A stretch of 64,000 nt of DNA, taken from contig JBEBXH010000027.1 in the NCBI GenBank assembly GCA_040391785.1, forward strand, positions 1,500 to 65,499, written 5' to 3'. The notes beneath the pieces are model-generated. The model did no database searches and was not told the origin of the DNA. It saw only the letters and a list, made by a program, of their open reading frames with translations. Of this stretch, positions 1-16,724 are shown in pieces; the stretch's first letter is position 1, and every line of letters starts with the position of its first letter. This stretch comes from Victivallis vadensis (GTDB lineage: Bacteria; Verrucomicrobiota; Lentisphaeria; Victivallales; Victivallaceae). The translations under genes and the position numbers were made by a program.

Positions 1-2
1 CG

Positions 3-404
3 AATACCTTGGGATACATCACGAATCGGCTTCTATACTGTTGTTGTGAAAATGAAGCGTTTATCTCCAAGGTGCTGATTGAAAATCAGATTGAAGTACC
101 CCATTTGATTCATGTCCGATATGGTGGTGGCTTTGGCGGTGCTTATGCTTCTGGAGAATATTTACTTCACTGCCTATCGACGCTGAAGGTCGAGCTGTTT
201 ATCACCGATCCGCATTTGAATGAGCAGAGCGGAGATAGAAAGGCATTGGAGGCATATCCTAATCTCAATGGGGAACGCCCTTCGCTAAATTTGCTATATA
301 AATTGAGAGGAAAATGCTGGTCGAATCATGGTACTGTTTCATGGTATTTATGTAAGAAAAATAATAATTCACGGAGCGATTTTGAGCAAGCCTTATATCT
401 TTAA
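3..404 (+). CDS. hypothetical protein, 5'-partial (frame is open to the window edge)
   Basis: ORF track 9..404. The first listed codon is TTG and the frame stays open upstream. I recognise no motif. It overlaps the next ORF by 77 nt in another frame. Confidence 0.35.
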   Translation, partial: NTLGYITNRLLYCCCENEAFISKVLIENQIEVPHLIHVRYGGGFGGAYASGEYLLHCLSTLKVELFITDPHLNEQSGDRKALEAYPNLNGERPSLNLLYKLRGKCWSNHGTVSWYLCKKNNNSRSDFEQALYL

Positions 405-1287
405 TAAGAGTGGTACTTGGTTTGATCCGTCAAGCGGAAAGCTCTACGAGTTCACCAAAAGTACCGTTTCCGTTATGGTTGCTTATCCTCAGCCGAAAGC
501 GTGGAAGAAAACGACCAAACGGTATCCGAACTGGACACGGTATCGACCATCATTGCACTGGCTTGACTCCAGACTCAAATATCATTTCGAAAAGCATGGT
601 GGTTATTCCGTGCTGGCGGTCAATGGCGAAGGCTATGACCTATACGATCCGTGGTTAAGGTGGTACTGCACAATTCCAGCAGAGATCCAAGTTCATCTGA
701 ATCTGTTCCGAACGCATAAGTGGCACATGCTGGCTTTTATGGCGTACGGAGGGCAAGCCGCTATTGATCTGGTGGCCGATAACCCTGCCTTAGCTTTTGC
801 CTTGGCATCGAATTGGATTTTTCATAAACCTGCCGTGCAACAGCCAATGCGTGCCGTTCACCGCCATCTACGTGCCAATAAATCACATGCGAGTATCATA
901 GCTTGGCTAGGGTTTTCATATCCGTGGAAAGCAGAGGTGATTTTGAAAAAACTGTCAGCTTCGGAAGTAAATGTTTCAAGATTACTGACCTTACGTGATA
1001 TGATGACTTCAACAGACGTAGTAAATATGCTCATGAAGCTACCTCGCTTGGACGGTGCAGTGATATATTTGTTGAGTCTGAAATCAAAAGGGTATCTTTC
1101 TCAGCGATTCATCAATGATTTCATGGCGATTGAAGGTACTCAACTTAATGAAGAAATCACCACTGCTCTTTCTGATTCCATCAAAATTCACGATGCATAT
1201 AAATTTTATCAGGAGTTTCCACGCATGGACTCGATCAGGCAGTTACTGCAGTACCGCAAGCAATTATCAGAGGAATTTGAACAGTGA
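328..1287 (+). CDS. hypothetical protein (319 aa), start uncertain
   Basis: Long ORF in AT-rich DNA. Its stop overlaps the next gene's start (GTGA at 1284-1287). No recognisable domain and no clear SD before 328. Confidence 0.45.
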   Translation: MVLFHGIYVRKIIIHGAILSKPYIFNKSGTWFDPSSGKLYEFTKSTVSVMVAYPQPKAWKKTTKRYPNWTRYRPSLHWLDSRLKYHFEKHGGYSVLAVNGEGYDLYDPWLRWYCTIPAEIQVHLNLFRTHKWHMLAFMAYGGQAAIDLVADNPALAFALASNWIFHKPAVQQPMRAVHRHLRANKSHASIIAWLGFSYPWKAEVILKKLSASEVNVSRLLTLRDMMTSTDVVNMLMKLPRLDGAVIYLLSLKSKGYLSQRFINDFMAIEGTQLNEEITTALSDSIKIHDAYKFYQEFPRMDSIRQLLQYRKQLSEEFEQ

Positions 1288-2141
1288 AAAACATAAAACG
1301 AATGGCTTTTGCATTTCTGGTATTGCTGAGCTGTGGATGGGATCATGCTCCTCAGTTTACTTCCGCTGAACTGACAACAGCCGAAAAGGAGCTGAACAAT
1401 GCCACAACTCAAGTAGAAATGACTGGTGCCGCTGGTGGTATTGCCGAATGCTCTCGGAATCTGATGCTGGAGGCTCTGGATTATCGGCTGTCTAAATTAT
1501 CAAAAACTGAGCGTAGCCAATTGTTACAGGAACAGTATGACTGGCATTTTTATATGCAACGCAGAAATTCTTATCCAATGGGAAAATTTTCAATGACTCC
1601 AATGTTGGGATATCTACGGGAAGCAAGCCGCCATAAATACCGCTTCGAGGAACTGGCTTGCCCGAATGATACTTATAATGCCTATCAGAAAATCAAAGAT
1701 GCCCCTATCAAGTTCAATAAATCGGCAAAACCATTATTCTGGGGTGAGCTGGATATTCATATTCCAAAAGATAAAAGGAAAACGGACTCCGCTGATCTGG
1801 AAACAGTAGGACAGCTCCTCCCACGATTCTGCCGTATTATCAAAAAAGACACTGATGAATACTGGATCGGGATCATCGTACCGACAAATTACAGCGTTGT
1901 TTCATCGTTCGGACTGGGAACCGAAACCAATCTTTGCATATGGAAGAATGGTCAAAACGTTGCCAATCACATTATCGGTAAAGAAATCACCATCAAGAAA
2001 CTGGAACTGAAAGGCAATATCATTATCATCCGCTACCGCCAAGATGAAAAACAATCGCCCATGATTGCTGAATTCAATCTGACTGCTGAAAATAAAAATG
2101 AGATTCAAATTAACCATTGGACAACGGAAACTAGTGAATAA
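1284..2141 (+). CDS. predicted lipoprotein (285 aa)
   Basis: The N-terminus MKNIKRMAFAFLVLLSCG has a signal peptide plus an LLSC lipobox. The GTG start is coupled to the upstream stop. The region after the signal loosely resembles DUF1311/LprI-like helices (weak). Confidence 0.55.
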   Translation: MKNIKRMAFAFLVLLSCGWDHAPQFTSAELTTAEKELNNATTQVEMTGAAGGIAECSRNLMLEALDYRLSKLSKTERSQLLQEQYDWHFYMQRRNSYPMGKFSMTPMLGYLREASRHKYRFEELACPNDTYNAYQKIKDAPIKFNKSAKPLFWGELDIHIPKDKRKTDSADLETVGQLLPRFCRIIKKDTDEYWIGIIVPTNYSVVSSFGLGTETNLCIWKNGQNVANHIIGKEITIKKLELKGNIIIIRYRQDEKQSPMIAEFNLTAENKNEIQINHWTTETSE

Positions 2142-2184
2142 TAATTAAATAATAATCCTAACCAAACGGAGGGTATTAATTACA

Positions 2185-2661
2185 ATGAGCACAAAAGAAA
2201 CTAAAAACGAAAAGGAACTAAAGCCAATGAACTCAAAAGAACTCAAAGCGAAATTTGAAAAAATTCAAGGACTAATAAATGACTATTATGCCGTCCCTGT
2301 ATTACGCTTTATAGAGCAAGAAGACGAACCTATATTTGAATCTGGAGTGGAACAGCCTCGTCATAACATGTGGAAATCTGATTCTGAGAATTGCATACTT
2401 TACTTTGGACGCAAAACCCCTATTAAAAATGAAGAAGATTGTGATCTGGATGAAGAAATCAAGAAACTGACGAACAATCCAGAATTAGCTGATATCATCG
2501 AAGAACAATATTTTTTTGATGGTAGCATAAATCTTATTTCAAGTGACTGTGGTGGAAAAACCCCAGAAGAAGCATTAGAAAAACTCGAAAAGCTCTGTGA
2601 GTTGCTCAAAAAAGATTACATTCTTATTTCTGAAATTAAGTATAAACTTGGCTGTTTTTGA
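2185..2661 (+). CDS. acidic hypothetical protein (158 aa)
   Basis: ATG is preceded by a GGAGGG SD at about 2168. The product is rich in D/E. The stop TGA lies in a T5 run, followed by an out-of-frame poly-Asp/Glu coding tract. Confidence 0.5.
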   Translation: MSTKETKNEKELKPMNSKELKAKFEKIQGLINDYYAVPVLRFIEQEDEPIFESGVEQPRHNMWKSDSENCILYFGRKTPIKNEEDCDLDEEIKKLTNNPELADIIEEQYFFDGSINLISSDCGGKTPEEALEKLEKLCELLKKDYILISEIKYKLGCF

Positions 2662-2674
2662 CAACGACGATCGG

Positions 2675-2710
2675 GATGATGATGATGATGACGAGGACGA
2701 TGATGAGGAA
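2675..2710 (+). repeat. GAT/GAC/GAG triplet tract; reads as repeated TGA stops in the frame of the upstream ORF
   Basis: Direct reading gives gatgatgatgatgatgacgaggacgatgatgaggaa. In one frame this encodes DDDDDDEDDDEE. Confidence 0.7.
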
Positions 2711-2780
2711 TAAGCAGCTCGAAATTTTCTTTTTGGTTGGTTCTGAATCTCAATTCAGAGATCGGACAAAATCGTAGATA

Positions 2781-2847
2781 TTAAAAAGTGTCTTTTCTGA
2801 GTTCTGCCTCCATCATCAGTATCTGCAGGCATGCTCAGAAAAGACAC
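2781..2847 (-). terminator. probable rho-independent terminator of the recombinase gene (perfect 14-bp inverted repeat)
   Basis: GTGTCTTTTCTGAG (2788-2801) pairs with CTCAGAAAAGACAC (2834-2847). An inner TGCCT/AGGCA pairing extends the stem. On the minus strand a TTTTTAA run follows. Confidence 0.5.
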
Positions 2848-2854
2848 ACGGAGA

Positions 2855-3430
2855 TTATTGATTCAGTAGCTGATGGACTCTGGTTCTGGATATCCCCACC
2901 GCCTTGGCAATTTCCGAAAGACTTTTCCCCTCTTGTCGCAAAGATAAAACTTTGGGAACATCGGCAATCTGAGGACGACCGAGTTTTTGGCCTTTGGCAC
3001 GAACACGGGCAAGTCCGACTTTGGTTCGTTCAGAGATCCGAATCCGCTCTTGTTTTGCCAAGCACGCCATGAGGCTGACGATAGCGTCGGCAAATACCCC
3101 CAATGAAGATATATATTCTTCGGTATAGGAATGCCACTTCACCTTGTAGTTATCGAGGCGAGTCAGGTAATCGAGGGTCTGCCGAGAACCTTCACGGCTA
3201 AAGCGGTCGAGACTCCAAAAGAGCAGAACGTCGAATTTTCTCTGCCTGGCTTTTTGAAAAACACTTTTCAAACCGGTACGTTCCTCTGCCGATTTACCAC
3301 CACTGGCAATATCACTGACAACGTCGATAATCTCCCATCCCTGTCGATCAGCGTACTCACGGAGTTGGCTAATTTGATTCTCGGTAGTCTGGTCTTCGGT
3401 ACTGACTCGGGTATAGATGATGCAACGCAT
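2855..3430 (-). CDS. small serine recombinase (resolvase/invertase family)
   Basis: MRCIIYTRVSTEDQ carries the catalytic Ser motif. The C-terminal HTH reads SLSEIAKAVGISRTRVHQLL. A GGAG SD lies 9 nt before the ATG at 3430. Confidence 0.9.
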   Translation of the reverse strand: MRCIIYTRVSTEDQTTENQISQLREYADRQGWEIIDVVSDIASGGKSAEERTGLKSVFQKARQRKFDVLLFWSLDRFSREGSRQTLDYLTRLDNYKVKWHSYTEEYISSLGVFADAIVSLMACLAKQERIRISERTKVGLARVRAKGQKLGRPQIADVPKVLSLRQEGKSLSEIAKAVGISRTRVHQLLNQ

Positions 3431-3560
3431 GTTTTTATTCTCCAATTTTTGCTGTTAAGAAATGGGTCTCAAAATGTCATCGAAATTGCCGCTTAAAATT
3501 CATCGATTCTCCGCTGTTCAGATTATGGTCGTTTTCTGTACAGCACCATCAAAAAAAATT

Positions 3561-4340
3561 TCACACCCTTCCATTTCGGATATGTTGCTGAAATAAAAAC
3601 GGTACGGACTGCCATTCCGTCAAATCCGAAATATTGAATCTGTAAATTCGCATGGAAGCAAGTTGCAATGACTGCCAACCGCCCATCGTTGCCGTAGCTT
3701 TGATCAGTGGAGCGGCTTCGCTGGAATAAATGATGCAACGGTATACTTTATGGTAAAGGAACGCTATGGGCATATTTCCAACGCCGACATAGATTGAATC
3801 TGGTTCAAGGCGGTTTATCAGCACAAAAGACATTGTACCTTCGAAATCACATAGGCTGTCAGCAAATTGCTCCATATCGAAGCCGCCATCAGATATACAA
3901 CTGTCAGCTAATCGAAATAGTGCCTCACTGTCCACTTGACCAATCCGCTTCCAACCATGCCGGGCAAACAAGGCATTATGGTTCAGGATAGTTCCGTTAT
4001 GAGTACCGACGCAACGATCAGTGATAATCGGATGGTTATTGACTGCGACCGATTCGCTACCGACAGTTCGCCAACGAGTATGACCAAGGGCAGCCGCAGA
4101 ATGATTATTGACCCCATTCATCATCCGTTGATATTCTGGACTCTGCGTGAGGCGGCTGGCCGAAGTCGCATGCTTCAGAACTCGACTACTACTATCTTTA
4201 TTGGAAATATACATGCCGCTGGCATCACGACCACGAGATTCATTATATAATAGAAGCTGAGTGAATACCGAAGTAAGGCTATTCAGCTCTCGCTGAGTTC
4301 GCCGCTTCTGTCCAAAGATTACGCCACATTGACCGCACAT
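3561..4340 (-). CDS. class-II (Ntn) glutamine amidotransferase domain protein
   Basis: N-terminal Met-Cys (MCGQCGVIF) supplies the nucleophile. GHTRWRTVG...NNHP and GTHNGTILN motifs are present. The start lies 1 nt after the stop of the upstream amidoligase gene. Confidence 0.75.
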   Translation of the reverse strand: MCGQCGVIFGQKRRTQRELNSLTSVFTQLLLYNESRGRDASGMYISNKDSSSRVLKHATSASRLTQSPEYQRMMNGVNNHSAAALGHTRWRTVGSESVAVNNHPIITDRCVGTHNGTILNHNALFARHGWKRIGQVDSEALFRLADSCISDGGFDMEQFADSLCDFEGTMSFVLINRLEPDSIYVGVGNMPIAFLYHKVYRCIIYSSEAAPLIKATATMGGWQSLQLASMRIYRFNISDLTEWQSVPFLFQQHIRNGRV

Positions 4341-4341
4341 A

Positions 4342-5238
4342 TCAGGCTACCTTCTTCGGCTTCGGAAGCCCATTCTTATATGAAGCACAGCCTGGCATAT
4401 ATTCCAAAAGGAAATGCCGCATGGTCTTGAACTCATCGCCAATAGCTCCAAGCCTCAGCAGATGAACTCTCATATCATATTTCGCCGTTGACGAATTGAA
4501 ACAACGTTTCTTACTGGCGGCGTACTGAACTTTCTCCGCACGATTGAGCAAGAGTAAGCAGTACTGCAGATAGGATTTTATCCTACCGGCATGAAGCGTC
4601 GATTCAAACCACCTGAACTCAATCGTACCACGATAAAACAACGAATGAAAGTTCACCCCATGATACCGTGAACTATGATAATGCTGGTGTTCTGCGGATT
4701 CGCCATTATACCATAACCGATTCAGATCGGTCAGGGTTTGCGGACGCTTCAAATTAATCTTCTCTATGAAATCCGTTTCCATGGGCTTGGTATACATCTC
4801 CATGCGATTGGAGGATATTTGCAGAGCATGGATAATCAGCGGTTCTTGCTTGTACACGATCTTGGCGAGATTGCCGAGTTGCCTCCCATTTAGGGAAAGA
4901 GCATCCACATGGACATGGATACCGCACGAACTGTTTACACGAGCTCTGCTCTTCCGAACCGCACGGATAACCTGCTGTAAGGTAGCGACATCATTGGGAT
5001 AAGTAAGGATAGGGCTGACGATCTCAGTATTTGCGGCTCCGATGCTCCGATCTCTGACCGCTTTCCAAGTGCGACCGTCAGCACAAGTACAGCTCCAAGC
5101 CTCATATATATCATCTTCATACTGGACATCACCGCCCACCACCTTCTGAATGGCAGAAATAGTGTCTTTTCTTGTCAAATTAATCGTCTCGATTTCAACT
5201 CCGAATCTCATTCCAGCCAATTCCGCTCTCTGATCCAT
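4342..5238 (-). CDS. Amidoligase_2 (glutamine-synthetase-like carboxylate-amine ligase) family protein
   Basis: Motifs seen: FGVEIE, EIVSP, CGIHVHVD, RYHGVNFHSL and GTIEFRWFESTL. I prefer the start at 5238 (GAGG SD); the track ORF extends to a TTG at 5307. Confidence 0.75.
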   Translation of the reverse strand: MDQRAELAGMRFGVEIETINLTRKDTISAIQKVVGGDVQYEDDIYEAWSCTCADGRTWKAVRDRSIGAANTEIVSPILTYPNDVATLQQVIRAVRKSRARVNSSCGIHVHVDALSLNGRQLGNLAKIVYKQEPLIIHALQISSNRMEMYTKPMETDFIEKINLKRPQTLTDLNRLWYNGESAEHQHYHSSRYHGVNFHSLFYRGTIEFRWFESTLHAGRIKSYLQYCLLLLNRAEKVQYAASKKRCFNSSTAKYDMRVHLLRLGAIGDEFKTMRHFLLEYMPGCASYKNGLPKPKKVA

Positions 5239-5562
5239 ATCTGCCTCATAATCATGGTTTTTGTCAATGCCAGACAATATCATCAAAATACGAAAAATCA
5301 AGCACAAAATAGATGTAAATCATTAATAATTAATATGTTGCAAATATTCACTATCGATACTGAAGATAATCTGATCTGGATAGGGGCGAATATCGCCATT
5401 TCGAGTTAAAATCAGGAGATACGCCAATAATCTGGATATAAAGAAAAGACACAATCTCTGAGGGCAGGACGAAGGCAGAATACTGCAGTTTTTACAAATT
5501 CGGAATGTGCCACCTAAAATCTAAAATTTCAATCTTATCCGACATATCAGCAGACGGCAGTG

Positions 5563-5648
5563 AAAAAATTTTCGGAAATTTTGGATTTTTGGGAAATAAC
5601 AATTTGGCTCTCTGTGCCTTTTTATCGATATTTACCGTAGGCTATAAT
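5563..5648 (+). promoter_or_regulatory. phased A/T tracts plus a candidate sigma70 promoter for the RT operon
   Basis: Four AnTnGG tracts lie at 5563-5607 with about 10-nt phasing. TATAAT is at 5643-5648, with a weak -35 (TTTATC) 16-17 nt upstream. Confidence 0.3.
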
Positions 5649-5720
5649 GCTATCTCCTTGTAAATGTTTGTAATAATGATATTTTACCATATCGTAATCA
5701 TTATATGGTGGGACATAAAA

Positions 5721-6911
5721 ATGTTGAAGCAAATATATTCTACTGAAAATTTGGCAAAAGTTATTAGAAAGAAACATATTGTTGCGTGGGAATTATGGAA
5801 TAACAATAGTCAAAAGCGAAAGAAACTAGAAGAATTAGTCTTAGCAATAGCTAATAATAATTATAAATTGAATGAAAACTTGAATTGCCAGATGTTTAAT
5901 GGCAAGCTTGCTTATTTCCCTGCATGCGCAGAAGATTTTTGTGCAATAAAACTTGCAGATTATTTTATCCGTAGAATATATAAGGTACAACAGGCAGATC
6001 GTAGAAAAATCATAAAACAGTTGAAAATTATGCTTACGGATGGGCTTCCTTATGGAATGATTAAATTGGATATATCCGATTTTTACGAGTCTATTGATTT
6101 TGGGAAGATTATTTCGCAAATTCAAGATGAAATGATTATTGGCCATGAAACGATTTTTATTTTACAATCTGTATTGGCGCAAATTGGAGATACAACGGGG
6201 CTTCCACGAGGGTTGGGAATCAGTGCTAGTTTATCTGAGATTTTCATGCGTTCAATAGATCGGGAAATTAGAAAAATTGAGGGAATATTTTTTTACGTTC
6301 GTTATGTAGATGATATCATCATTATTTATGATTGCAAATACGATATAACTTCTTTGATTAGTAATATATTGCATGATAACCATCTGTCGGAGAACGAGGG
6401 AAAAAGAAAAAATATAGTTATTAGCGAAACTCGAAGTAATGAGCATTATTTTGATTATCTTGGCTATAACTTCAAAATACAAGAAGGTAAAAGATCTAAT
6501 GAAATTACGGTGAAAATTGCTGAACGGAAAATAAATAAACAGAAAACACGAATTGCGTCAACTTTTATACATTATTCTAAAACTCATGATTTTTCTATGT
6601 TGAAAAGGCGACTTCGCTTTCTTAGTGGATTAGTTCTACTCAATGATGATGGGCGAGGGCGATTATATGCAGGAAATTCCTATAATTATAGTGAAATATC
6701 TGAGAATACATATTTATCCGAGCTTGATCAATATTTGTACTCAATTTTGTCCGGGAGTGGGCGCTTAGGAAGGAAAATTGAAAGATTATTAACCTCAGGA
6801 CAAAAGAATGAGCTAATGCGTATTTCATTCAGACAGGGCTACAATAAAAAATTTCATTTCTTTTATTCACGCAGTCAAGCGGCAGATATAAAGAAAGCCT
6901 GGGGAAAGTAG
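5721..6911 (+). CDS. reverse transcriptase 1 (compact, 396 aa); DRT3a/UG3-like by architecture
   Basis: RT motif A is KLDISDFYESID. Motif B is GLPRGLGISASLSEIFM. Motif C is YVRYVDDIIIIY (YVDD at 6303-6314). FDYLGYNF follows. A GGTGGG SD precedes the ATG at 5721. Confidence 0.85.
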   Translation: MLKQIYSTENLAKVIRKKHIVAWELWNNNSQKRKKLEELVLAIANNNYKLNENLNCQMFNGKLAYFPACAEDFCAIKLADYFIRRIYKVQQADRRKIIKQLKIMLTDGLPYGMIKLDISDFYESIDFGKIISQIQDEMIIGHETIFILQSVLAQIGDTTGLPRGLGISASLSEIFMRSIDREIRKIEGIFFYVRYVDDIIIIYDCKYDITSLISNILHDNHLSENEGKRKNIVISETRSNEHYFDYLGYNFKIQEGKRSNEITVKIAERKINKQKTRIASTFIHYSKTHDFSMLKRRLRFLSGLVLLNDDGRGRLYAGNSYNYSEISENTYLSELDQYLYSILSGSGRLGRKIERLLTSGQKNELMRISFRQGYNKKFHFFYSRSQAADIKKAWGK

Positions 6912-6912
6912 A

Positions 6913-8859
6913 ATGATAACAATAAATAAAGATGACAAATTTAGAGTATTACTCACTGAAGTTTTACCATATGAAGTTCCTATTTGGCTCTCAAATAATT
7001 GCTTTTATAAGTTATGTTTTTCTGGGCTTATTACTTATCAGTCAGGCGCATTAATAATTAATGGTCAAGGAATTTCATTAAGCGACAACCTGATTCCATT
7101 GGATTATTTCATCGGAAAAGATGATAACAGTTTCAGAAAACTCTCGATCATGCATCCATTGGCTCAATTAAAAGTTGTTGATTTTTATGAGCAATACGGA
7201 GATATTATTCCATATTATTGTCAATGTTCAGAGGCTACTTTACGAGCTCCATTTGCAATAGCAAAAACAATCCGTAATACAGATGATGCTGAAGAAGAAA
7301 AAGAACTCATAGAAGAAGAAGGTGAATTGAGCCCCAAAGACGAAGATCCTCCTTGCAGAACATTTCTTGATACATACTGCAGTTCATATTACACTTATAA
7401 AAAGATTGATTTCTTCTATAAATTTTTTGAATCATACGAATTTCACCGACTTGAAAAAAGATATACTAAATGCTTGCAGGTTGATGTAGCAAAATGTTTT
7501 GATAGCATATATACCCATTCAATTTGCTGGGCTATTAAAGGAAAAGCAACAGCCAAATTAATGGCAGGTAAATTGGAATCATTTGAAGGTAATTTTGATT
7601 ACCTAATGCAAACCACAAATTATCGTGAAACTCATGGCATTTTGATCGGGCCAGAGCTTTCTCGTATATTTGCAGAAATTATTTTTCAGAAAATTGATAA
7701 TGACCTTATAGCTACCCTCTCGCAGAATTCAGTTCGTTGGAGCAATAAAAAAGATTATGAATTTAGGCGGTATGTTGATGACTATATTATATTCTTTAAT
7801 GATGAAAACTGTGTTAGAGACATCATCGCATGTTTAGAAAAATGCTTGATAGAATATAAAATGCATCTGAATGAATCTAAAACCTCATATAGTATGCGTC
7901 CATTCATATCAGAAATTTCAATGTGCAAAATGGAACTTCGTGATTTGATTAAATCGTACTTTGACAGCAAATATGATGAAGAAGGAGAACCTCAAAATAT
8001 CAATAGACCCTCATCTGTTGCTAATAGAATTATCATTCGCATTAAAGCAATCGTTAAAAAGTTTAGCTCTATCTCTTATAAAAGTATTTCTGGTTTTTTA
8101 TTAAATGACTTTACTCGTGGAATTGATCGATTTTTAAAGAAAGCGGCAGAATATGAGACTGATGAACGATGTCTTGTAAACAATTTGCTAATTGATTTGG
8201 ATATCATATTTTTTGTGCATTCAATGGATATTCGAGTCAGGCCGACTGATTTGCTGACTAGAGTTATATTAGGCATATTGCGATCTCCATTATTACAGGA
8301 GGGAAAATGCAAAGCTCCTATTCAGAGAAAGATCTTCGATTCATGTCGTGACATATTCACAATATTAAACGTGCAGAAGAAAAAATGTAATGTTGAAATC
8401 TGTAACGTTCTGTTGATGCTTTCAGCTTTGGAAGAAGATTTTCAATTTACGGAACCATTCTTAATAAAACATTGTGAAATGGACGAGGAAAAACCCATTG
8501 ATTATTTTTTATGGGGGACATTGATGCTCTATATTCGTGATTCACCAAAATATTCATCTTTTAGAATGGTTTTAGAAAAATGCTTAATTCGTTCATTTGA
8601 AACAGGGAAAGATATCTTGAATTCAACGGAACTTTTTATGCTGTTACTGGATTCGTTAGCTTGTCCCTACCTTCCAAAAGAGACGAAACGAAAAATTATA
8701 CGAATTGTAGAAGCTCGTTCAACCTTAGGCTTAAGCCAAGCTAATCAGGATAAATTTATAGCGAGCTGTTCTCGGCACAATTTCTTCTTGGACTGGAAAA
8801 ATGAGGATTGGCTATTTGAAATGGCAAAACGGAAGATGTATATTTTCCCATATGAATAA
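6913..8859 (+). CDS. reverse transcriptase 2 (648 aa, AbiK-like class 1 UG/Abi type with a long helical C-terminal domain); DRT3b/UG8-like by architecture
   Basis: Motifs seen: QVDVAKCFDSIYTHSICW, ETHGILIGPELSRIFAEIIF, FRRYVDDYIIFF (YVDD at 7771-7782) and LNESKT. About 300 aa of helical tail follows. The ATG lies 1 nt after the RT1 stop. Confidence 0.85.
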   Translation: MITINKDDKFRVLLTEVLPYEVPIWLSNNCFYKLCFSGLITYQSGALIINGQGISLSDNLIPLDYFIGKDDNSFRKLSIMHPLAQLKVVDFYEQYGDIIPYYCQCSEATLRAPFAIAKTIRNTDDAEEEKELIEEEGELSPKDEDPPCRTFLDTYCSSYYTYKKIDFFYKFFESYEFHRLEKRYTKCLQVDVAKCFDSIYTHSICWAIKGKATAKLMAGKLESFEGNFDYLMQTTNYRETHGILIGPELSRIFAEIIFQKIDNDLIATLSQNSVRWSNKKDYEFRRYVDDYIIFFNDENCVRDIIACLEKCLIEYKMHLNESKTSYSMRPFISEISMCKMELRDLIKSYFDSKYDEEGEPQNINRPSSVANRIIIRIKAIVKKFSSISYKSISGFLLNDFTRGIDRFLKKAAEYETDERCLVNNLLIDLDIIFFVHSMDIRVRPTDLLTRVILGILRSPLLQEGKCKAPIQRKIFDSCRDIFTILNVQKKKCNVEICNVLLMLSALEEDFQFTEPFLIKHCEMDEEKPIDYFLWGTLMLYIRDSPKYSSFRMVLEKCLIRSFETGKDILNSTELFMLLLDSLACPYLPKETKRKIIRIVEARSTLGLSQANQDKFIASCSRHNFFLDWKNEDWLFEMAKRKMYIFPYE

Positions 8860-9030
8860 ATATTGAGAAGTTTTTGGCGGGCAACAATATTTTTCTCTTT
8901 GGATAAATCGCATTTTTTTAATAAGAATGCATTGTTCTCTGAGATTTCCTCTCTCCTATGAGAATAGATGAGAGTGAGGAGGAAACTCCACACACAAGCG
9001 ATGCTCGCCAAAAGCTTCTCTTTTTTTGTT
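8859..9030 (+). ncRNA. candidate structured non-coding RNA or terminator region downstream of RT2
   Basis: Hairpins lie at 8859-8890, 8910-8930 and 8945-8985. The third is 15 bp, interrupted, with a GAGA tetraloop. A CCACACACAA tract is at 8988-8997. A small hairpin is at 8998-9008 and a T7 run at 9021-9027. Confidence 0.3.
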
Positions 9031-9062
9031 CAGGTATATATTCTATAGATTGCTTTCCTGTT

Positions 9063-9326
9063 TTAAGCAACTTCAAGCCATTGCAATTCAAGAATGATTC
9101 GGATTAGTTTGTCTTTTGTCAATTGCTTCAGGCTTAGAGCAGTATACTTTTTGTTATCCGAGGTTTCTTCTGTAGCGGGAAGGACGTTTATTACCTTTTG
9201 CTTGGATTCCATTGAGATGTGGGGGTAGTGGGAAGTCATGTCGGCGGTGTGGAGCGCCCTACCATTGATTGGATCACGGATATGAGAACGGCTTGGTTTA
9301 TGGTCATGGTGCAGAAGGTGTGGCAT
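9063..9326 (-). pseudogene. possible C-terminal remnant of a tyrosine integrase (very tentative)
   Basis: PHLLHH...ALHTADMTSHYPH loosely parallels the box II pattern PHxLRH...LGHxxxxxTxxYxH with similar spacing. The Arg is replaced and the N-terminal ~300 aa are missing. It lies next to the tRNA 3' end in the same orientation. Confidence 0.25.
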
Positions 9327-9504
9327 GGAATAGATACTATGGGGTTTTAGCTGTCGCCCATGGGCGAAATTTCTTTTTCAGCATGTATGTCTTGAGTTGA
9401 AGGTCGAACATCTCAGCCTCAAAAGTGGTCAGTCTTTTGTATGTCTATTATTTGGTGTTTGAGCTTGAACGGTGGTGGCTGATGGTGTTCGATAGGGATT
9501 TTGG

Positions 9505-9540
9505 AAAAAAGAAAACCAACGGTGTTAAATCGTTGGTTTT
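9505..9540 (-). terminator. rho-independent terminator just downstream of tRNA-Thr (also hairpin-competent on the plus strand)
   Basis: AAAACCAACG (9512-9521) pairs perfectly with CGTTGGTTTT (9531-9540). On the minus strand a TTTTCTTTTTTCC run follows. Confidence 0.6.
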
Positions 9541-9552
9541 GAGCTTATTAAG

Positions 9553-9628
9553 TGGAGCCAATGATCGGAATCGAACCGATGACCTATTCATTACGAGTGA
9601 ATTGCTCTACCGACTGAGCTACATTGGC
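9553..9628 (-). tRNA. tRNA-Thr (anticodon CGT)
   Basis: I folded the cloverleaf by hand. Acceptor is GCCAATG/CATTGGC. D stem is GCTC/GAGC. Anticodon stem is ATTCA/TGAAT with loop CTCGTAA. T arm is ATCGG-TTCGATT-CCGAT. CCA is encoded. Length is 76 nt. Confidence 0.92.
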
Positions 9629-9693
9629 TGATTTCGCTTAATTTAATGACTCTTTTGGAAATTTCAACTTCAAATTCAAGTTTTTTTATCTTT

Positions 9694-11106
9694 TTACCGG
9701 GGAAGAGGGACGTAGCCTGCGGCTTCGATCACGGTTTGGCCCTCTGGGGTGGTCAGAAAGTCGTAGATTCGACGGGCAGGGGAGTCGGCGGGTTCATCGC
9801 GCCGGATGGCCGCATAAATCGGCGCGCGGAGCGGGTAGGTGCCGTCGGCGATGGTCTCATTGGTTGGCTTGACGCCGTTGATCGCCAGGTTTTTCGAGTA
9901 TGGCACCGGGTGAATGTTCTGTTCGTAGTAAAACACCGAAAAGCCGAGCGAGTTGACTCCCAAAGCATCAAAGATGCCTCTCATGGTGAATTCTTTATGG
10001 ACCAACTTCTTATTACATGGCAGTGATCCATTGAAAATCAGATTCCTCATCAGGATGCCAGTACCGGAATTCGGATTCCTGTCAAGCGGGCGAATGGGCT
10101 TGGAGGGGGCTTGATCATCGATATCTTTCCAGGTGAGCCTATCCGGCTGCGCCTGGGTATAGATTCTTTTGATTTGCTCCGGGGTTATGTTTTCGATCGG
10201 GTTCGAGACGTGGACTACGACCACCAGCGCGTCGTAGGCGATGATCTTGGATTCGAGTTTGTCGAGCGATTCGCGGGGAAAAATTGCGCCTTTGCCGGGA
10301 AACGGGGTCGAGAGGTCGAACTTTTCCTCGTAATCCTTTTCCGTCAATGCGGCCACAGCTTCCGGGGAAACGGAGTTGATGACGATCAGATTAGGATTGT
10401 TCAACAATTGCTGATAGGCTGCGCCAGTCTGGCTGTTCGGAGTCAGGGTGTTGCCTGTGTGGAGCAGTGCCCACCGGCGTTTTTGAAGGCTTGTGGCGTC
10501 ATCACTCAGCCCATATCTGATTCCGGGAAGATTATTCTCATATTGGATGAGAATATGGGGAAACAGGCTTGTTTCATCCGTTTTCAAATGTTCTTGCCAA
10601 CTCGGCTTGATCCCGAACATATAACACAGAATAATCATACGCATGGGTAAAGTCGATGTCGCACCATCCAAATCGGGAGTAGCATCGATGGACAAGTCCC
10701 CAAACGGCGGTTTGTCGTAGTTGAACTTGATTTTGGACAAACTGCGGTTCAAGCGGTGGTTTACATGTTCCTGCAGGTCGTGCGCATATAATCGTCCCTC
10801 CAAGGTATTAAGCAGCCAGAAATAAGACATGAACTCGTGCTTGGATGGCTCGTATTGGAAAGATATGGACCCGTTTGGGGATGGCATATATGGCTCATAT
10901 TGATATAGGGTTGACAAATCCTTTTCGAGAATCTCGCAGGAAGCATCGCGATAGCGTTTTTCCCCTTCTCCTGTGAAAGTGAAAGAAAAATCATCTTTGT
11001 CTCTTATTACCAACTGCAGGAGCTGTTTGGCGGAAAGTTTTTCCTCGGCCAGGGCTGAACCGGTTGAGAGAAGAAGCGAAAGCAGAATCAGCACGTAACG
11101 AAACAT
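9694..11106 (-). CDS. secreted protein with a C-terminal PstS-like (PBP_like_2) substrate-binding domain
   Basis: Signal peptide MFRYVLILLSLLLSTGSALA sits after a GGAGG SD. The C-terminal half reads NPNSGTG...LGFSVFYY...ADGTYPLRAPIY, typical of phosphate-binding-protein-like domains. Confidence 0.6.
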   Translation of the reverse strand: MFRYVLILLSLLLSTGSALAEEKLSAKQLLQLVIRDKDDFSFTFTGEGEKRYRDASCEILEKDLSTLYQYEPYMPSPNGSISFQYEPSKHEFMSYFWLLNTLEGRLYAHDLQEHVNHRLNRSLSKIKFNYDKPPFGDLSIDATPDLDGATSTLPMRMIILCYMFGIKPSWQEHLKTDETSLFPHILIQYENNLPGIRYGLSDDATSLQKRRWALLHTGNTLTPNSQTGAAYQQLLNNPNLIVINSVSPEAVAALTEKDYEEKFDLSTPFPGKGAIFPRESLDKLESKIIAYDALVVVVHVSNPIENITPEQIKRIYTQAQPDRLTWKDIDDQAPSKPIRPLDRNPNSGTGILMRNLIFNGSLPCNKKLVHKEFTMRGIFDALGVNSLGFSVFYYEQNIHPVPYSKNLAINGVKPTNETIADGTYPLRAPIYAAIRRDEPADSPARRIYDFLTTPEGQTVIEAAGYVPLPR

Positions 11107-11192
11107 ATGCACCTCCGGTTTATAAAATACATTATCCCGGGGAATGGGGGTTGTCAAAGTTGAAAGTTTCTTTTCCGGCGATAAATTACCGT

Positions 11193-11975
11193 ATGACTAC
11201 TCGATATCTTGGCAGAAATCCTTATCTGGCGACGGTGGTGCACGGCGGGCCCGGCGGCATCGGATCGGCTCACGGGCTGGCACGCGGCCTCTCCGCGTAT
11301 TGCGGTGTGTTGGAGCCGCTGCAGTCGGCTTATTCGGTCGAAGGACAGGTGGAGGAGCTGCGTCAGCAGATTGGTGATTGCGGGAAGCCGTTGATTCTGA
11401 TCGGGCATTCCTGGGGAGCATGGCTGGCGGCGATGGTAGCAGCCAGATATCCGGAACGTATAAAGCAACTGATTCTGATCGGTAGTGGCGCGTTGGACGA
11501 GAAATACCTGCCGCAGCTTGAGGAACGGCGTCTGGCACATCTTGACGCAGCGGAGAAAGAACAGTATTTCGAGGCGATCCGGCACTTACAGGAGGAGGGG
11601 ACCGACAAAGATGCCGGGCTCCGGAAGTTAGGCGAACTGGCGGACAAGGCCGATACCTACAGCCCACTGGATGAAGTGTTCGAAATTGCCACCATTGACG
11701 GTGAGATGTACGCTAAAGTCTGGCCGGAGGCCGCGCAAATGCGCAGGAACGGCGAACTGCTGGCGCTGTTCAAAAAGGTCAAATGCCCGATTACCGTGAT
11801 TCACGGAAACTACGATACAACCCCGCCGGAGGCCGTGACAGAATCGCTGCAGCAGGCCGAGATCAAGTTCACGGCGCACATCCTGGAAAAATGCGGCCAT
11901 ACCCCCTGGCACGAGAAATATGCCAGAGATAAATTCTTCCTGATATTATCCCAAATCGTAAAGGCCGGGGAATGA
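11193..11975 (+). CDS. alpha/beta hydrolase
   Basis: A GHSWG nucleophile elbow follows HGGPGG. The start is placed at the internal ATG, beyond the overlap with the upstream gene. Confidence 0.7.
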   Translation: MTTRYLGRNPYLATVVHGGPGGIGSAHGLARGLSAYCGVLEPLQSAYSVEGQVEELRQQIGDCGKPLILIGHSWGAWLAAMVAARYPERIKQLILIGSGALDEKYLPQLEERRLAHLDAAEKEQYFEAIRHLQEEGTDKDAGLRKLGELADKADTYSPLDEVFEIATIDGEMYAKVWPEAAQMRRNGELLALFKKVKCPITVIHGNYDTTPPEAVTESLQQAEIKFTAHILEKCGHTPWHEKYARDKFFLILSQIVKAGE

Positions 11976-11983
11976 GATTTTTG

Positions 11984-12031
11984 AACACGGAAAGCTTGGT
12001 TGCGGCTCCGCCACGCCAGGTATTCCGTGTT
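11984..12031. terminator. hairpin between convergent genes (9-bp arms, long loop)
   Basis: AACACGGAA (11984-11992) pairs with TTCCGTGTT (12023-12031). T/A runs flank it on both sides. Confidence 0.4.
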
Positions 12032-12040
12032 TAAAAATTT

Positions 12041-14857
12041 TCAGCGTTTGATGGCTTTGTTGTATTCGAAAAGATTTTCGAAGAGATTGACATTGCCGCC
12101 GATATCGCCTGCCAGTACGACCATTCCGTTGCCAAGCGGGCGCGCCATGATGTAGGGCTTTTCCGTTTCGTCGGCAAGTTTCTGACAGGCGAGGTTCACC
12201 CATTTATCGGGGAATGCGGGCTCGAAAACGCCCGACGGGGTGTGCCCGAGCGCCTTTTTCATGTCGTGCGGCGTGGTGGCAAAGCTGTCGGGCGAAATGT
12301 AGGTCGCTTTGCGGACCGGATGCGGCTTTTCAATGAACTTCACCTGAAAGCTCGGATCATCGAACTGTTTTTCCAGTTCATGGACCCAGAAGTAACAGCT
12401 GAAAACCACCACCGCGCCGTTTTTCACCGCCGGAATCAGCTTGTCGCGGTAAAACTCCAGCGGCAGCTTGTTCTGATAGTTTTCGATGACGACCAGCTTG
12501 CTGTCCGTCAAGTCCAGTCCTGCCGCGCCTTCCGGGCCGATGACATTCTGTATCTGCCAGCCGCTCTTCAGGAAGTTGCTTTTGAAACTATCGAAGCGGC
12601 GCCCGTTGGCCAGCCCGGGCGTTGAGAGCCAGGTCAGGCGGTAATCCGGTTTGCCTTTGGTAGTGAAATACAGCGTGGCGCTGCCGCTCATGTCGTGGTA
12701 GGCGGGGAAGGGGTAGCCGCTGGCTTCCGGCTTGCTGTTGCGGATCAGGACGATCTGCCACTGGTCGCCGTCCTTCGGTGTGACTTCGAGCGAAGTGAAG
12801 GGGATGCGGATATTGGTGATCCAGCGGTCGGCTTCGAGAGTCGTTTGAGCTTGCCAGACCGGGTCCCAGTTTTTGTCGTTGCCGAGGGCGTCATAGGTAC
12901 CGCCCGCCGGGTTCGCGGCGAAGTGGCGGTAGGGGAGGCCATCGCCCGGATCGAGGAAGATTTCGATGTTGTCGTCGCTCCAGAGCGCGACGTCGCGCAC
13001 GCCGGAGGTGCCTTTGCGCAGCTTCGCCATGTCGGGTTCGGTACAACTTACCTGAATATGAAGGGCGTCCTTGCTCCAGAAAATCCGGCTCTGGGTGGGG
13101 AGGGGAGTGCCTTTGTTGCTTTTCATCGGCAGGATACCAACCTGGGCGAAGTTCTGCGGATCGTCGGAGAGCTGCGGCAGCGTGGCGCTGGCGGCGTTGT
13201 CGCGGGCCAGCTGATACAGCTTGAGCCACTGGTTGAACAGGGTCTTGTCGAGGGCGACTTCTCCGGAGAACCGGGCATTGTTTTCGCCCTGGACCGCGGC
13301 TTCGGCGGCCTTGAATTTCTCATTGGCCGATTTGATCAACTCGGCATTCAGGAAATGCTTGGCGGTACCCAGGGGCTTGGCGCCGAAATAGCTCAGGTGG
13401 ATTTTCATGCCGTCCCAGGCCGCCGCCATCATCTTGTGGTATTCGAGCATGGAGGCCGCCGCCGGGCCGTAGACGTATTGGCAGTAGTCCGCCAGCAGGG
13501 CATCGATATTTTCGTCCGGATTCCACAGGAGCCTGGCGTAGATGTAGTTGGACAAACGCCAGACCAATTGCGGTATTTCCGCTCGGGGGGCGTTTTTCGG
13601 ATACTGTACGCCCAGTTCGGTTTTCATCCGGACCAGTTTCATGTCGCGAAAAATCTTCATTTCATCGGCCAGCATGTTCCAGAACGGCACATACATGCTG
13701 GGGCTGAACACATCGAATTCATAGCCGTAGATGCCCATCGGGGCCTTGGCCTGCCAGCGCTTCAGTTCCTCCATGGATTTCTGGTTGAAGGCACATTCCG
13801 GGTTGTCGAGTTTATGCACGTAACAACGGTTGTACTGGCAATATTCCACATATTCGAGGCCCTTCACTTCCGTGGCCGGGACCGTACGGTATTCCTGATA
13901 CGCGATACCGGCGAACATGACGTCCGGGCATTTCTTTTTGATTTCCTGAATCAGCTGATAATAGTAATCGTACCAGCGGGAGGAAGGATCGGGATTTTTC
14001 GTGCATTCGGCGCATTCGCAACGGGGAACGATGTCGGCAGGGAAGGCATTTACGAGGTTGAGGCCGCGATCTTTGATCATCTTGACGTGTTTCTCGACCA
14101 TCAGTTTGGTGAAGCCGGGATTCGACCAGCAGCCGGCTTCTCCCTCGGGAACGCGCTTGCCGTTGATCAGAGAGAAGTATTCGGGATGTTCGTCGAAATC
14201 CTTTTTGTTTATGCTGACGGAGTGAAGACCGTCGAGACTGTAGAACCCGGCTTTGTCGCGGATGGCCGGAGTACGCGAACCGCCGTTCAGGAAATTGCGC
14301 GCCAGCCAGATTTCGGTGGGAATGTGATAATGCATACCGCACGGGGTCATTTCCCGGAAACGGAACTCGGGCTTGTAGTTGCGTTTCAGACCGGGCAGGG
14401 TATAGCTGGTTTTCGACGCGATGAACTCGCCGTCATCGCCCGGCCAGAACCAGCGGACGCCGAGCTCATTCTGCAGGAACGAGTATACCGCATAAAGCGC
14501 GCCGCGCGGATTGTTGCCGCACAAATAGAGGTTGCCGTTCAGCGTATAAACCGCCAGTTCCTCAGTATCGCCGGCTTTCAGTTTCAGTCCGGCGGGCAGC
14601 TCGGGAAACGTGGTAAGCGAGGCGATGACGATGGTTTTGCCTTGCGGCGGCTTGGCGCCATCGACGATGGTGAATTCAGCACCGGATATTTTCTTCAATG
14701 CTGCCTGAAGCTCCTCGGCAGCGTATTTTTCCGCTGGGGCAGCCTGCGGAAGGAGCCAGATTTTCCAGTCGGTTTTTCCTTGATCGAATAAGAGATTTTG
14801 TGCCGAAACGGCAGCGCACACCGTCATGACCGCCAGCGCGGTTAATATTGTTTTCAT
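12041..14857 (-). CDS. secreted DUF4838-type glycoside-hydrolase-like protein with a CBM9-like region
   Basis: Signal peptide MKTILTALAVMTVCAAVSAQ. The NPRGALYAVYSFLQNELGVRWFWPG block is typical of DUF4838. The DDNIEIFLDPG...HFAANPAGG block is CBM9-like. Confidence 0.6.
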   Translation of the reverse strand: MKTILTALAVMTVCAAVSAQNLLFDQGKTDWKIWLLPQAAPAEKYAAEELQAALKKISGAEFTIVDGAKPPQGKTIVIASLTTFPELPAGLKLKAGDTEELAVYTLNGNLYLCGNNPRGALYAVYSFLQNELGVRWFWPGDDGEFIASKTSYTLPGLKRNYKPEFRFREMTPCGMHYHIPTEIWLARNFLNGGSRTPAIRDKAGFYSLDGLHSVSINKKDFDEHPEYFSLINGKRVPEGEAGCWSNPGFTKLMVEKHVKMIKDRGLNLVNAFPADIVPRCECAECTKNPDPSSRWYDYYYQLIQEIKKKCPDVMFAGIAYQEYRTVPATEVKGLEYVEYCQYNRCYVHKLDNPECAFNQKSMEELKRWQAKAPMGIYGYEFDVFSPSMYVPFWNMLADEMKIFRDMKLVRMKTELGVQYPKNAPRAEIPQLVWRLSNYIYARLLWNPDENIDALLADYCQYVYGPAAASMLEYHKMMAAAWDGMKIHLSYFGAKPLGTAKHFLNAELIKSANEKFKAAEAAVQGENNARFSGEVALDKTLFNQWLKLYQLARDNAASATLPQLSDDPQNFAQVGILPMKSNKGTPLPTQSRIFWSKDALHIQVSCTEPDMAKLRKGTSGVRDVALWSDDNIEIFLDPGDGLPYRHFAANPAGGTYDALGNDKNWDPVWQAQTTLEADRWITNIRIPFTSLEVTPKDGDQWQIVLIRNSKPEASGYPFPAYHDMSGSATLYFTTKGKPDYRLTWLSTPGLANGRRFDSFKSNFLKSGWQIQNVIGPEGAAGLDLTDSKLVVIENYQNKLPLEFYRDKLIPAVKNGAVVVFSCYFWVHELEKQFDDPSFQVKFIEKPHPVRKATYISPDSFATTPHDMKKALGHTPSGVFEPAFPDKWVNLACQKLADETEKPYIMARPLGNGMVVLAGDIGGNVNLFENLFEYNKAIKR

Positions 14858-14876
14858 GTTTTTTTTCCTGTTTGGG

Positions 14877-15584
14877 TTAATCGTTGAATGAGCACCAGGG
14901 CTCTTTGGTTGAGGCGATTAATTTGGTGTAAAGAACTTGATGGTTCTCGACGTGGCCGTCAACGTGGACGGCGTTGCTGAAGCCATTGTAGAAATAGCGG
15001 CCGCTGGGATCCGTGGTCACCTTGCCGGAATGCCGTCCGTTCATGCAGACCGGGAGCAGCAGATAGCGCCCGGTGTCCGCCTGCTGAGGAGTCATGCTGG
15101 CATCGCTGTTGAAGGAGTCGGCAAGCATAATCATACTGGATGCCGATTTGATATTTGAGGTTTTCATGGTCGACCAGGTTGATCCATAAGAGGCAATTTT
15201 CGCATTGTAACCATAGGACACACCGTTGATGGAAAAGGCATAGGCGCCTGTCTTGGGCATGGCGGGCCACATTTTCGGGCACCAGAAGAGCTGGTCGCGG
15301 ACGTTGGTGTCGCCGCTGGCGATGAAGGTATCGCTTTTGCCAGTGGCGTAGGAGTAAATGGCTTTTACATAAGCGCCCTTGGCAATTACGTTCAGCGGGA
15401 AATAATCATCATAATCAGCATGGTACAACGCAAAAGCACTGCCGAGCTGTTTGAGGTTGCTTTTGCAGTTCGCATCATGAGCCTTATCCCGGGCGGCATT
15501 CAGGGCAGGGAGGAGCATTGCGGCAAGGATGGCTATGATGGCAATGACTACCAGCAGCTCTATAAGTGTGAAATTCTTTTTCAT
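14877..15584 (-). CDS. prepilin-type N-terminal cleavage/methylation domain protein (DUF1559 family)
   Basis: [28 protein letters not shown] at the N-terminus. The C-terminal block is [10 protein letters not shown] (H-X9-DG-like). Confidence 0.85.
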
Positions 15585-15599
15585 AAAATCGCCTCCATT

Positions 15600-16574: not shown

Positions 16575-16598
16575 AAATCACCATTTTTTGTCATGGAG

Positions 16599-16622: not shown

Positions 16623-16724
16623 TATTATATCGTTGCCGAATGGTTTTGTCAATAGGGTTAGAAAAGATTTCAACAAATATTTTTCAGGGAGCAGGACACG
16701 GACTTACACGGACGGGCACGGAAG

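Follow-up and report, generated by a model that had tools for sequence, protein, structure and literature searches.

The locus and its genes

The window (the whole 64,000-nt stretch of DNA analysed here) contains two reverse transcriptase (RT) genes on the same strand, drt3a and drt3b, followed by a structured noncoding RNA (ncRNA) and, beyond it, a tRNA gene (Table 1). When the sequence was re-read, the two ORFs that the earlier note had called RT1 and RT2 were found where it had placed them, one nucleotide apart (stop codon TAG at 6909–6911, an a at 6912 and ATG at 6913–6915), and all the motifs that it had quoted were present in the translations, including the YVDD palm motif of RT1 and that of RT2 (residues 287–290, nt 7771–7782). 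The drt3a frame is open from 5664, 5721 being the start that gives 396 aa; this start is supported by the Drt3a profiles, which align from residue 1, and among the genes called in the public collection is one whose 396-aa product is identical. The drt3a ATG is preceded by a Shine–Dalgarno-like motif (GGTGG), and a GGGGA motif lies upstream of the drt3b start; together with the one-base gap this would fit coupled translation. The region has no excess of promoter-like sites (24, where 19.8 +/- 4 were expected), and the candidate promoter in Table 1 is therefore to be taken as a suggestion, not as evidence.

Table 1. Features of the locus and its tRNA-side flank (positions in the window)
Feature	Position	Strand	Basis or remarks
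Candidate sigma-70-like promoter, TTTACA-18-TAAAAT	5491..5520	+	About 200 nt upstream of drt3a; consensus scan, 10/12 matches
drt3a (UG3, class 2 UG reverse transcriptase, 396 aa)	5721..6911	+	YVDD at aa 195-198 (nt 6303-6314)
drt3b (UG8, class 1 UG reverse transcriptase, 648 aa; alpha-repeat domain and C-terminal tail)	6913..8859	+	
DRT3 ncRNA, 156 nt	8865..9020	+	Fold, covariance model, same architecture in related loci
Closing helix P1 of ncRNA, 19 bp	8865-8883 paired with 9002-9020	+	MFE fold
Three internal stem-loops of ncRNA	8894-8944, 8947-8977, 8978-8989	+	MFE fold
Putative template for Drt3a, 5'-ACACAC-3'	8990..8995	+	Sequence; unpaired in MFE fold
Seven-T run directly 3' of P1	9021..9027	+	Possible transcript end
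tRNA-Thr(CGT)	9553..9628	-	ARAGORN; Rfam tRNA, 75.5 bits; context, outside the system

Assignment of the two reverse transcriptases

To which families do these proteins belong? The earlier note had proposed a DRT3-like antiphage module, and had named beforehand the comparison on which this should turn, that of UG3 and UG8 profiles with group II intron, retron, DGR and AbiA models. With PADLOC and NCBIfam profiles, RT1 matched Drt3a/UG3 better than any of those other models. It scored 342 bits against the NCBIfam Drt3a equivalog NF041747 (cut-off 200; residues 1–394 of 396) and E 2e-109 against PADLOC PDLC02174 (Drt3a), whereas UG17, the second best, reached 105 bits, the group II intron model 62 bits and the retron model 45 bits. 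It also matched PDB 9z6y_A ('Drt3a reverse transcriptase protein'; E 3e-38, residues 44–394), the YVDD of which aligned with that of Drt3a here; the catalytic YxDD motif is intact.

RT2 likewise fell with Drt3b/UG8, ahead of UG30 (151 bits) and AbiK (about 110 bits): it scored 577 bits against the Drt3b equivalog NF041748 (cut-off 350; residues 11–641) and E 3e-182 against PDLC02176 (Drt3b; residues 2–647). The match thus runs the length of the protein and takes in the alpha-repeat domain. Among solved structures it matched 9z6y_H ('Drt3b'; E 9e-75, residues 2–641) and, in two aligned stretches by phmmer, 26cz_A (E 7e-88), which is a SUMO-tagged RT with a numbering offset of 108. In the latter alignment E21, R75, D191, F196 and R251 fall on E. 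coli E22, R71, D182, F187 and R241. Across 33 homologues there is no variation at these five positions, at VDD 288–290 or at Y647; the first residue of YVDD, Y287, is kept here but does not belong to that invariant set. The protein ends in ...IFPYE, so that Y647 is the penultimate residue of 648, as the priming tyrosine of E. coli Drt3b (Y666 of 667) is of that protein (PMC13174585). By position and conservation Y647 is the counterpart of Y666, and it is on these that the equivalence rests, because the tail lies beyond the end of the pairwise PDB alignment. The Drt3b residues experimentally defined for priming and protein-templating of poly(dC-dA) are all present (E21, R75, R251, YVDD 287–290 and Y647). 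This degree of retention is accompanied by considerable divergence: Drt3b of this locus is about 40% identical to proteobacterial homologues, and no other full-length Drt3b in the collection searched exceeds 53% identity to the Lentisphaerota lineage.

A downstream ncRNA with an ACACAC template

The earlier note, in describing the DRT3 architecture, had included an ncRNA but had given no position for it. Such an RNA is indeed present, immediately downstream of drt3b. Its minimum free energy (MFE) fold has a value of –64.5 kcal/mol (z = –6.8 against shuffles), and the ACACAC element lies inside P1, immediately 3' of the last internal hairpin and 6 nt 5' of the 3' strand of P1. When 18 full-length downstream regions were aligned with MAFFT (A2), RNAalifold found no consensus; a narrow seed (A3) was then taken and iterated. 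The ncRNA of the window escaped the model R1, built from nine short gammaproteobacterial ncRNAs, but was detected by the broader models R2 and R3. For R3, which was made from 20 other DRT3 loci with the window left out, the sole match in the 64 kb was at 8870–9015 (18.5 bits, E 0.01, a modest score), or with filters off at 8866–9019 (20.4 bits, E 2e-4, also modest). In the R3 alignment two-sided changes occur in all 22 of 22 pairs, and 91.6% of cells are paired, against 35–51% when the partners are slid. Rfam returned only the tRNA and no family for the ncRNA, whether in E-value mode on 4800–10000 or in gathering mode on the whole window. The ncRNA is kept in a relative (L083), in which the last hairpin shows a compensatory A-U to G-C change and homology ends at 9026.

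Conservation of the three-part architecture

That the RT pair should be conserved as neighbours in relatives had also been named in advance as a test. Of 80 related loci, 78 encode Drt3a directly upstream of Drt3b in the same orientation, and the other two are cut by contig ends. In 77 of the 80 the sense strand carries ACACAC no more than 190 nt from the drt3b stop codon (GTGTGT in two), and the combination of ACACAC and a hairpin on its immediate 5' side is close to universal in all sampled Drt3b clades, including clades in which published covariance models found few ncRNAs. Because of this near-universality, the existence of DRT3 subtypes with different repeat outputs is argued against, a point better supported than the reading on gating or assembly considered below.

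Genomic context

The GlmS of the window is nearest to Victivallaceae/Lentisphaerota, in keeping with the PVC-type genome suspected earlier, and the host is, on sequence grounds, Victivallaceae-like. The suggestion of a low-GC island at a tRNA gene was borne out in its essentials: the cassette adjoins the 3' end of tRNA-Thr(CGT), which faces it, and is of low GC, but the values are 0.32–0.35 (not 25–30%) for the cassette and about 0.51–0.60 (not a uniform 60%) for the host flank. The tRNA gene is presumably the site of island integration. Two relatives (L083 and L085) have the same cassette, and after it just a 3' portion of tRNA-Thr(CGT). The island extends to the left edge of the window, and a second copy of the tRNA 3' end in direct orientation, as would mark its far border, was not found inside the window. 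A search for contigs encoding the Drt3b of the window returned none, and the set of species-representative genomes does not include that of the window.

Several neighbours were considered and set aside. An 87-aa ORF (9063–9326, minus strand) had no Pfam support as a remnant of a tyrosine integrase, and the amidoligase, GATase and resolvase genes, for which there were no PADLOC matches, showed no co-occurrence with DRT3 in the 80 loci that would make them parts of the system. Two unrelated resolvase matches were the only co-occurrence of such neighbours in those loci.

Identity of the system and alternative readings

With both proteins above curated cut-offs and matching solved DRT3 structures, it is very probable that the locus is a complete DRT3 system, comprising drt3a, drt3b and a cis-encoded downstream ncRNA, and that it works as E. 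coli DRT3 does. It is thus a new copy of DRT3 and not a new system, since it is an intact copy of a known antiphage system; the fallback of a new two-RT system, kept in reserve by the earlier note, does not apply to a pair that is placed in Drt3a and Drt3b.

DRT3 has been solved mechanistically and structurally (PMC13174585; PDB 9z6y, 26cz). The E. coli mechanism, including ACACAC as an experimentally shown template, is described in PMC13174585, and a DRT3 mechanism also in Deng et al. (2026), as summed up in the review PMC13314766. Following this model, Drt3a would bind the ncRNA and repeatedly copy the unpaired ACACAC loop to give poly(dT-dG). Drt3b would act without a nucleic-acid template, with the penultimate Y647 as primer, while E21 and R251, with stacking by R75, would enforce alternating addition of dA and dC to yield protein-linked poly(dC-dA). 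The two products would anneal into repetitive dsDNA that is normally held low by host recombination nucleases, and inhibition of those nucleases by a phage would let the dsDNA accumulate and bring about abortive infection. For this host we infer the poly(dT-dG)/poly(dC-dA) products, the trigger and the defence phenotype by analogy.

How far might the locus depart from this expectation? That the RTs belong to another class (group II intron, retron, DGR, AbiA/AbiK or another UG group) is scarcely credible. Weak secondary profile matches to group II intron RT, retron RT, AbiK, Drt4 and UG30 do point that way, but they are 3–8 times lower in bits than those to Drt3a/Drt3b, below cut-off and confined to the palm region (for group II RT, 62 and 47 bits with a cut-off of 300; for retron St85, 45 and 22 bits with a cut-off of 235). 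RVT_1 was the only Pfam match in both proteins, and, as the earlier note had already stated, there was neither a maturase or endonuclease domain in them nor a TR/VR-like long repeat pair within 1–12500; Rfam found no group II intron or retron RNA families, either in 4800–10000 or in the whole window. A DRT3 by descent that is non-functional in this host, carried along by the island after recent transfer or while decaying, is improbable, if less so. In the closest relatives (L083–L085, 80% nt identity) drt3b is split into ORFs of 397 and 255 aa, in 24 contigs, so cassettes of this lineage can decay; moreover, the GC of the cassette (0.33) is far from the 0.55–0.60 of the host, and the consensus scan yielded no statistically supported promoter. 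Against this, in the window both ORFs are intact and of full length relative to the profiles, the catalytic, priming and templating residues are all kept, as are the template and helices of the ncRNA, and the spacing of the genes and the GGGGA motif fit coupled translation.

The remaining alternatives accept an active DRT3. One, that the product is made but accumulation of dsDNA in this Lentisphaerota host is controlled by a sensor or nuclease other than RecBCD/Gam, is highly improbable: the RecBCD/phage Gam trigger logic has been defined in E. coli only (PMC13174585), according to the review PMC13314766 neither the trigger nor the downstream effect has been resolved, and Drt3b is distant from its proteobacterial homologues, but the locus suggests no extra component, its amidoligase, GATase and resolvase genes not being associated with DRT3 in the 80 loci. 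A broader version, in which this divergent Lentisphaerota lineage with its long-form ncRNA and extra stem-loops makes the same poly(GT/AC) dsDNA but with gating other than by RecBCD, or with a different assembly around the larger ncRNA, is unlikely, though less so than the alternatives above. We retain a complete DRT3 of the E. coli kind as the preferred reading. With it, a family whose study has been confined to E. coli gains an intact example from the PVC superphylum, in a Victivallaceae-like host. All the experimentally defined determinants (the priming Tyr, the Glu/Arg nucleotide gates and ACACAC) persist although the proteins are about 40% identical, which supports the view that protein-templated poly(dC-dA) synthesis is general. 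As a divergent homologue the locus may serve comparative biochemistry; by itself it opens no new question.

Comparison with known systems

The locus shares with E. coli DRT3 (EcoDRT3; Gao et al., 2020; Wang et al., 2026, preprint PMC13174585; PDB 26cz) the gene order drt3a, drt3b, ncRNA, a Drt3b made up of an RT-like domain, an alpha-repeat domain and a C-terminal tail with a penultimate Tyr, equivalents of E22, R71, R241 and YVDD, and an ACACAC in an unpaired loop adjoining a stem-loop. It differs in that the proteins are divergent (Drt3b has 667 aa in E. coli and 648 aa here) and in its host, Lentisphaerota rather than Enterobacteria. It differs too from the short gammaproteobacterial ncRNAs, the model trained on which missed the ncRNA of the window, in having an interior of three stem-loops within 156 nt. 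Both proteins match chains of the Drt3a–Drt3b–ncRNA 6:6:6 complex (PDB 9z6y/9z6z; Deng et al., 2026, cited in PMC13314766), although the first 40 or so residues of Drt3a here do not align.

The closest full locus among species-representative genomes is that of a Victivallales MAG (L027, CAXXKX010000001.1), with Drt3b 42% and Drt3a 41% identical. Its ncRNA likewise has a P1-enclosed (AC)n template, but with a longer run (ACACACACAC), and about 1.3 kb downstream lies tRNA-Gln, a different tRNA from the tRNA-Thr of the window; the locus is only distantly related in sequence. DRT10/UG17 and DRT9 are class 2 UG RTs that carry out ncRNA-templated tandem-repeat synthesis as single-RT systems, with other templates and effectors. 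They have in common with the present locus the logic of a short loop template adjoining a stem-loop; RT1 nevertheless scores 3.5 times higher to Drt3a than to UG17.

Two reverse transcriptase genes of the DRT3 type

An earlier note on this DNA had described two same-strand ORFs, one nucleotide apart and each with a YVDD motif, and this was borne out by the sequence and by the translations, in which all the other RT motifs that it quoted were also found. At the junction, a single 'a' (6912) separates the stop codon of RT1, the drt3a product (TAG, 6909–6911), from the start codon of RT2, the drt3b product (ATG, 6913–6915); the latter is preceded, at a distance of about 8 nt, by a GGGGA motif. 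The YVDD motifs lie at residue 195 of RT1 (nt 6303–6314) and residue 287 of RT2 (aa 287–290; nt 7771–7782). The 5721 start of RT1 is supported because Drt3a profiles align from residue 1 in profile searches, and because the identical 396-aa product is a called gene in a public protein collection.

Features of the island and its DRT3 cassette
Feature	Position	Strand	Basis or remark
Three consecutive ORFs (319, 285, 158 aa)	328–2661	+	no Pfam or PADLOC match
Small serine recombinase gene	2855–3445	-	Pfam
Class-II GATase-like gene	3561–4340	-	GATase_6, E 8e-13
Amidoligase_2 gene	4342–5307	-	PF12224, E 2e-55
RT1 ORF	5664..6911 (relevant ATG 5721; 396 aa)	+	ORF scan of window
RT2 ORF	6913..8859 (648 aa)	+	ORF scan of window
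ncRNA closing helix P1	8865–8883 with 9002–9020	+	19 bp, fold
Three ncRNA internal stem-loops	8894–8944, 8947–8977, 8978–8989	+	fold
ACACAC, unpaired	8990–8995	+	between last hairpin and P1 3' strand
T7 run	9021–9027	+	after P1
tRNA-Thr(CGT)	9553–9628	-	sole tRNA in window

Could the pair belong to some other class of retroelement? RT1 matches the NCBIfam Drt3a equivalog NF041747 over residues 1–394 (342 bits, cut-off 200), has Drt3a as its top PADLOC match (E 2e-109) and hits the solved structure 9z6y_A 'Drt3a' (E 3e-38); the next families are UG17 (105 bits), group II intron RT (62 bits) and retron RT (45 bits). For RT2, the corresponding matches are to the Drt3b equivalog NF041748 (577 bits, cut-off 350), to PADLOC Drt3b (E 3e-182, residues 2–647) and to the structures 26cz_A (a SUMO-fused RT; E 7e-88) and 9z6y_H 'Drt3b' (E 9e-75), followed by UG30 (151 bits), Drt4 (about 148 bits) and AbiK (about 110 bits). 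Pfam finds RVT_1 alone in each. Profiles and solved structures thus place the proteins in Drt3a and Drt3b, and for neither is a model of AbiA, DGR, retron or group II intron RTs the best match, so that the DRT3 (UG3/UG8) placement suggested earlier stands. Another retroelement class is rejected: it is ruled out by the profile scores, and the partner RNAs and repeats are absent. The two genes are also neighbours elsewhere, as had been expected: 80 loci encoding Drt3b relatives were drawn from species-representative genomes, and in 78 of them drt3b directly follows the end of a Drt3a-like ORF on its own strand, the remaining two being cut by contig ends.

In E. coli DRT3, the priming residue of Drt3b is Y666, at the penultimate position (Wang et al., 2026; PMC13174585), and E22 and R241, with stacking by R71, bring about poly(dC-dA) synthesis without a nucleic-acid template (PMC13174585). 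At the key E. coli positions RT2 has E21, R75, D191, F196 and R251 (aligned to 26cz_A with phmmer, allowing for a tag offset of 108), and its C-terminus reads ...IFPYE, Y647 of 648 being penultimate. All of these, together with V288, D289 and D290, are invariant across 33 aligned Drt3b homologues (38–52% identity).

The ncRNA and its counterparts

An ncRNA, counted by the earlier note among the parts of the architecture but given no position there, was found directly after the drt3b stop codon. The fold of 8860–9040 has an MFE of -64.5 kcal/mol (z = -6.8 against dinucleotide shuffles), and no Rfam family was found for the RNA. Its counterpart in L083, a close metagenomic relative, is about 85% identical; in the last hairpin a G-C pair replaces A-U, and a deletion of 18 nt is restricted to one stem-loop tip. 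The last part of drt3b contains a promoter-like TTGAAA-17-TATATT (8816–8844, +; consensus match only). Transcription from it would begin close to the drt3b stop codon and shortly ahead of the ncRNA; the region shows no enrichment of such sites.

In nine short gammaproteobacterial ncRNAs, RNAalifold found P1 and the hairpin beside the template, and with them compensatory changes. The covariance model built from this seed (R1) proved too narrow to detect the window ncRNA; once it had been enlarged twice, each time with other loci only, the resulting model (R3) gave a single match in the whole window (8870–9015, 18.5 bits, E 0.01; with filters off, 8866–9019, 20.4 bits, E 2e-4). In the model alignment, which was fitted to the structure so that its pairing figures are biased towards it, two-sided changes occur in 22 of 22 pairs, and 91.6% of cells are paired, against 35–51% with slid partners.

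At 77 of the 80 loci, ACACAC occurs on the sense strand no more than 190 nt after the drt3b stop (GTGTGT at two); the exceptions are CACACA (L074), a distal ACACAC at +366 (L029) and a truncated gene. MFE folds of nearer relatives again place the template in a junction, enclosed by a 12–32-bp helix that begins 1–13 nt past the stop and is unrelated in sequence from locus to locus. A small hairpin always precedes the template in the 80-locus set. In a long form, the template lies at +60 to +190 and the enclosing P1 begins right after the stop; in a short form (29 loci) it lies at +24 to +52, and no consistent enclosing helix was found. This pattern suggests at least two ncRNA architectures with a single repeat output.

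The island and its host

The contrast in GC between island and host is real, though smaller than first estimated: 0.32–0.35 for the cassette and about 0.51–0.60 for the chromosomal part of the window, with 0.33–0.47 left of tRNA-Thr as far as the window edge. GlmS is 80% identical to a Victivallaceae MAG protein, all named matches being from Lentisphaerota, and these matches mark the host as Victivallaceae-like (Lentisphaerota, PVC). In the relative L081 (GCA_040394635.1), whose GlmS is 98% identical, synteny covers 12045–18687 and 23015–23858, and there is no counterpart to 1–12044. Also absent from it are 4.3 kb between glmS and the acetolactate decarboxylase gene (18688–23014), encoding a GntR-type/periplasmic-binding regulator, an N-methyl (prepilin-like) protein and a GH123 glycoside hydrolase, which looks like ordinary variable carbohydrate-utilisation content.

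Three metagenomic relatives (L083–L085) share the cassette at 80% nucleotide identity, at least from 6414 to 9026 and exactly through the ncRNA; 53 nt later they resume with 9426–9593, ending in the 3' ~45 nt of tRNA-Thr and lacking its 5' half. Integration targeted to tRNA genes leaves a partial 3' tRNA copy, and such a trace beside the same cassette supports the earlier view of an island at a tRNA. This fragment is att-like and adjoins the cassette in the relatives; a search for a second att copy inside the window found none. The relatives (L083:2651–2704) lack the stretch of about 400 nt that in the window separates the ncRNA from the tRNA-proximal segment (9027–9425) and includes an 87-aa ORF (9063–9326, -) without a family match.

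PADLOC matched none of the neighbouring island genes left of the tRNA, and their co-occurrence with DRT3 was not found at the 80 other loci, apart from two unrelated resolvase matches. The three leftmost ORFs may be carried as cargo by the same mobile element. The amidoligase and GATase genes (3561–5307, -) are divergent from drt3a within the same low-GC island, and such pairing is reportedly known from mobile elements (Iyer et al., 2009). The motif (T)AGTGTCTTTTCT has six matches at up to two mismatches, all inside the island (1842–5454), against 0.66 expected in the whole window. The matches form two inverted pairs, one just downstream of the serine recombinase gene (2786–2798, +/2837–2849, -) and one bracketing the start of the amidoligase gene at its 5' end (5160–5172, +/5442–5454, -), and could be recombinase or regulator sites.

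Likely mode of action

In E. coli, the ncRNA encoded downstream has a 5'-ACACAC-3' loop from which Drt3a synthesises poly(dT-dG), and the dsDNA product of the system accumulates when phage inhibit RecBCD, leading to abortive infection (PMC13174585); the Drt3a:Drt3b:ncRNA assembly is 6:6:6 according to the summary of Deng et al. (2026) in PMC13314766. The parts, residues, RNA and architecture of DRT3 are all present in the window, and the locus most likely works by this published mechanism. Drt3a with the ncRNA would make poly(dT-dG), Tyr-primed Drt3b would make poly(dC-dA), and the two would anneal to dsDNA within the assembly; in this host, phage inhibition of RecBCD would be the predicted trigger, with dsDNA build-up and abortive infection as the outcome.

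Two unlikely alternatives are that the product is unchanged and its gating by the host different, and that the cassette is decaying or silent. Decay is suggested by the close relatives, in which drt3b is split into overlapping ORFs of 397 and 255 aa (L083:553–2507, L084 and L085), probably by a real frameshift, because the split is seen on 24 contigs; these relatives keep the ncRNA with its ACACAC. The window copy, in contrast, proved intact by each of the tests applied to it. The evidence thus supports a further example of the known, recently solved DRT3 system, in the form of a divergent homologue from the PVC phylum in which every experimentally defined determinant has been kept.
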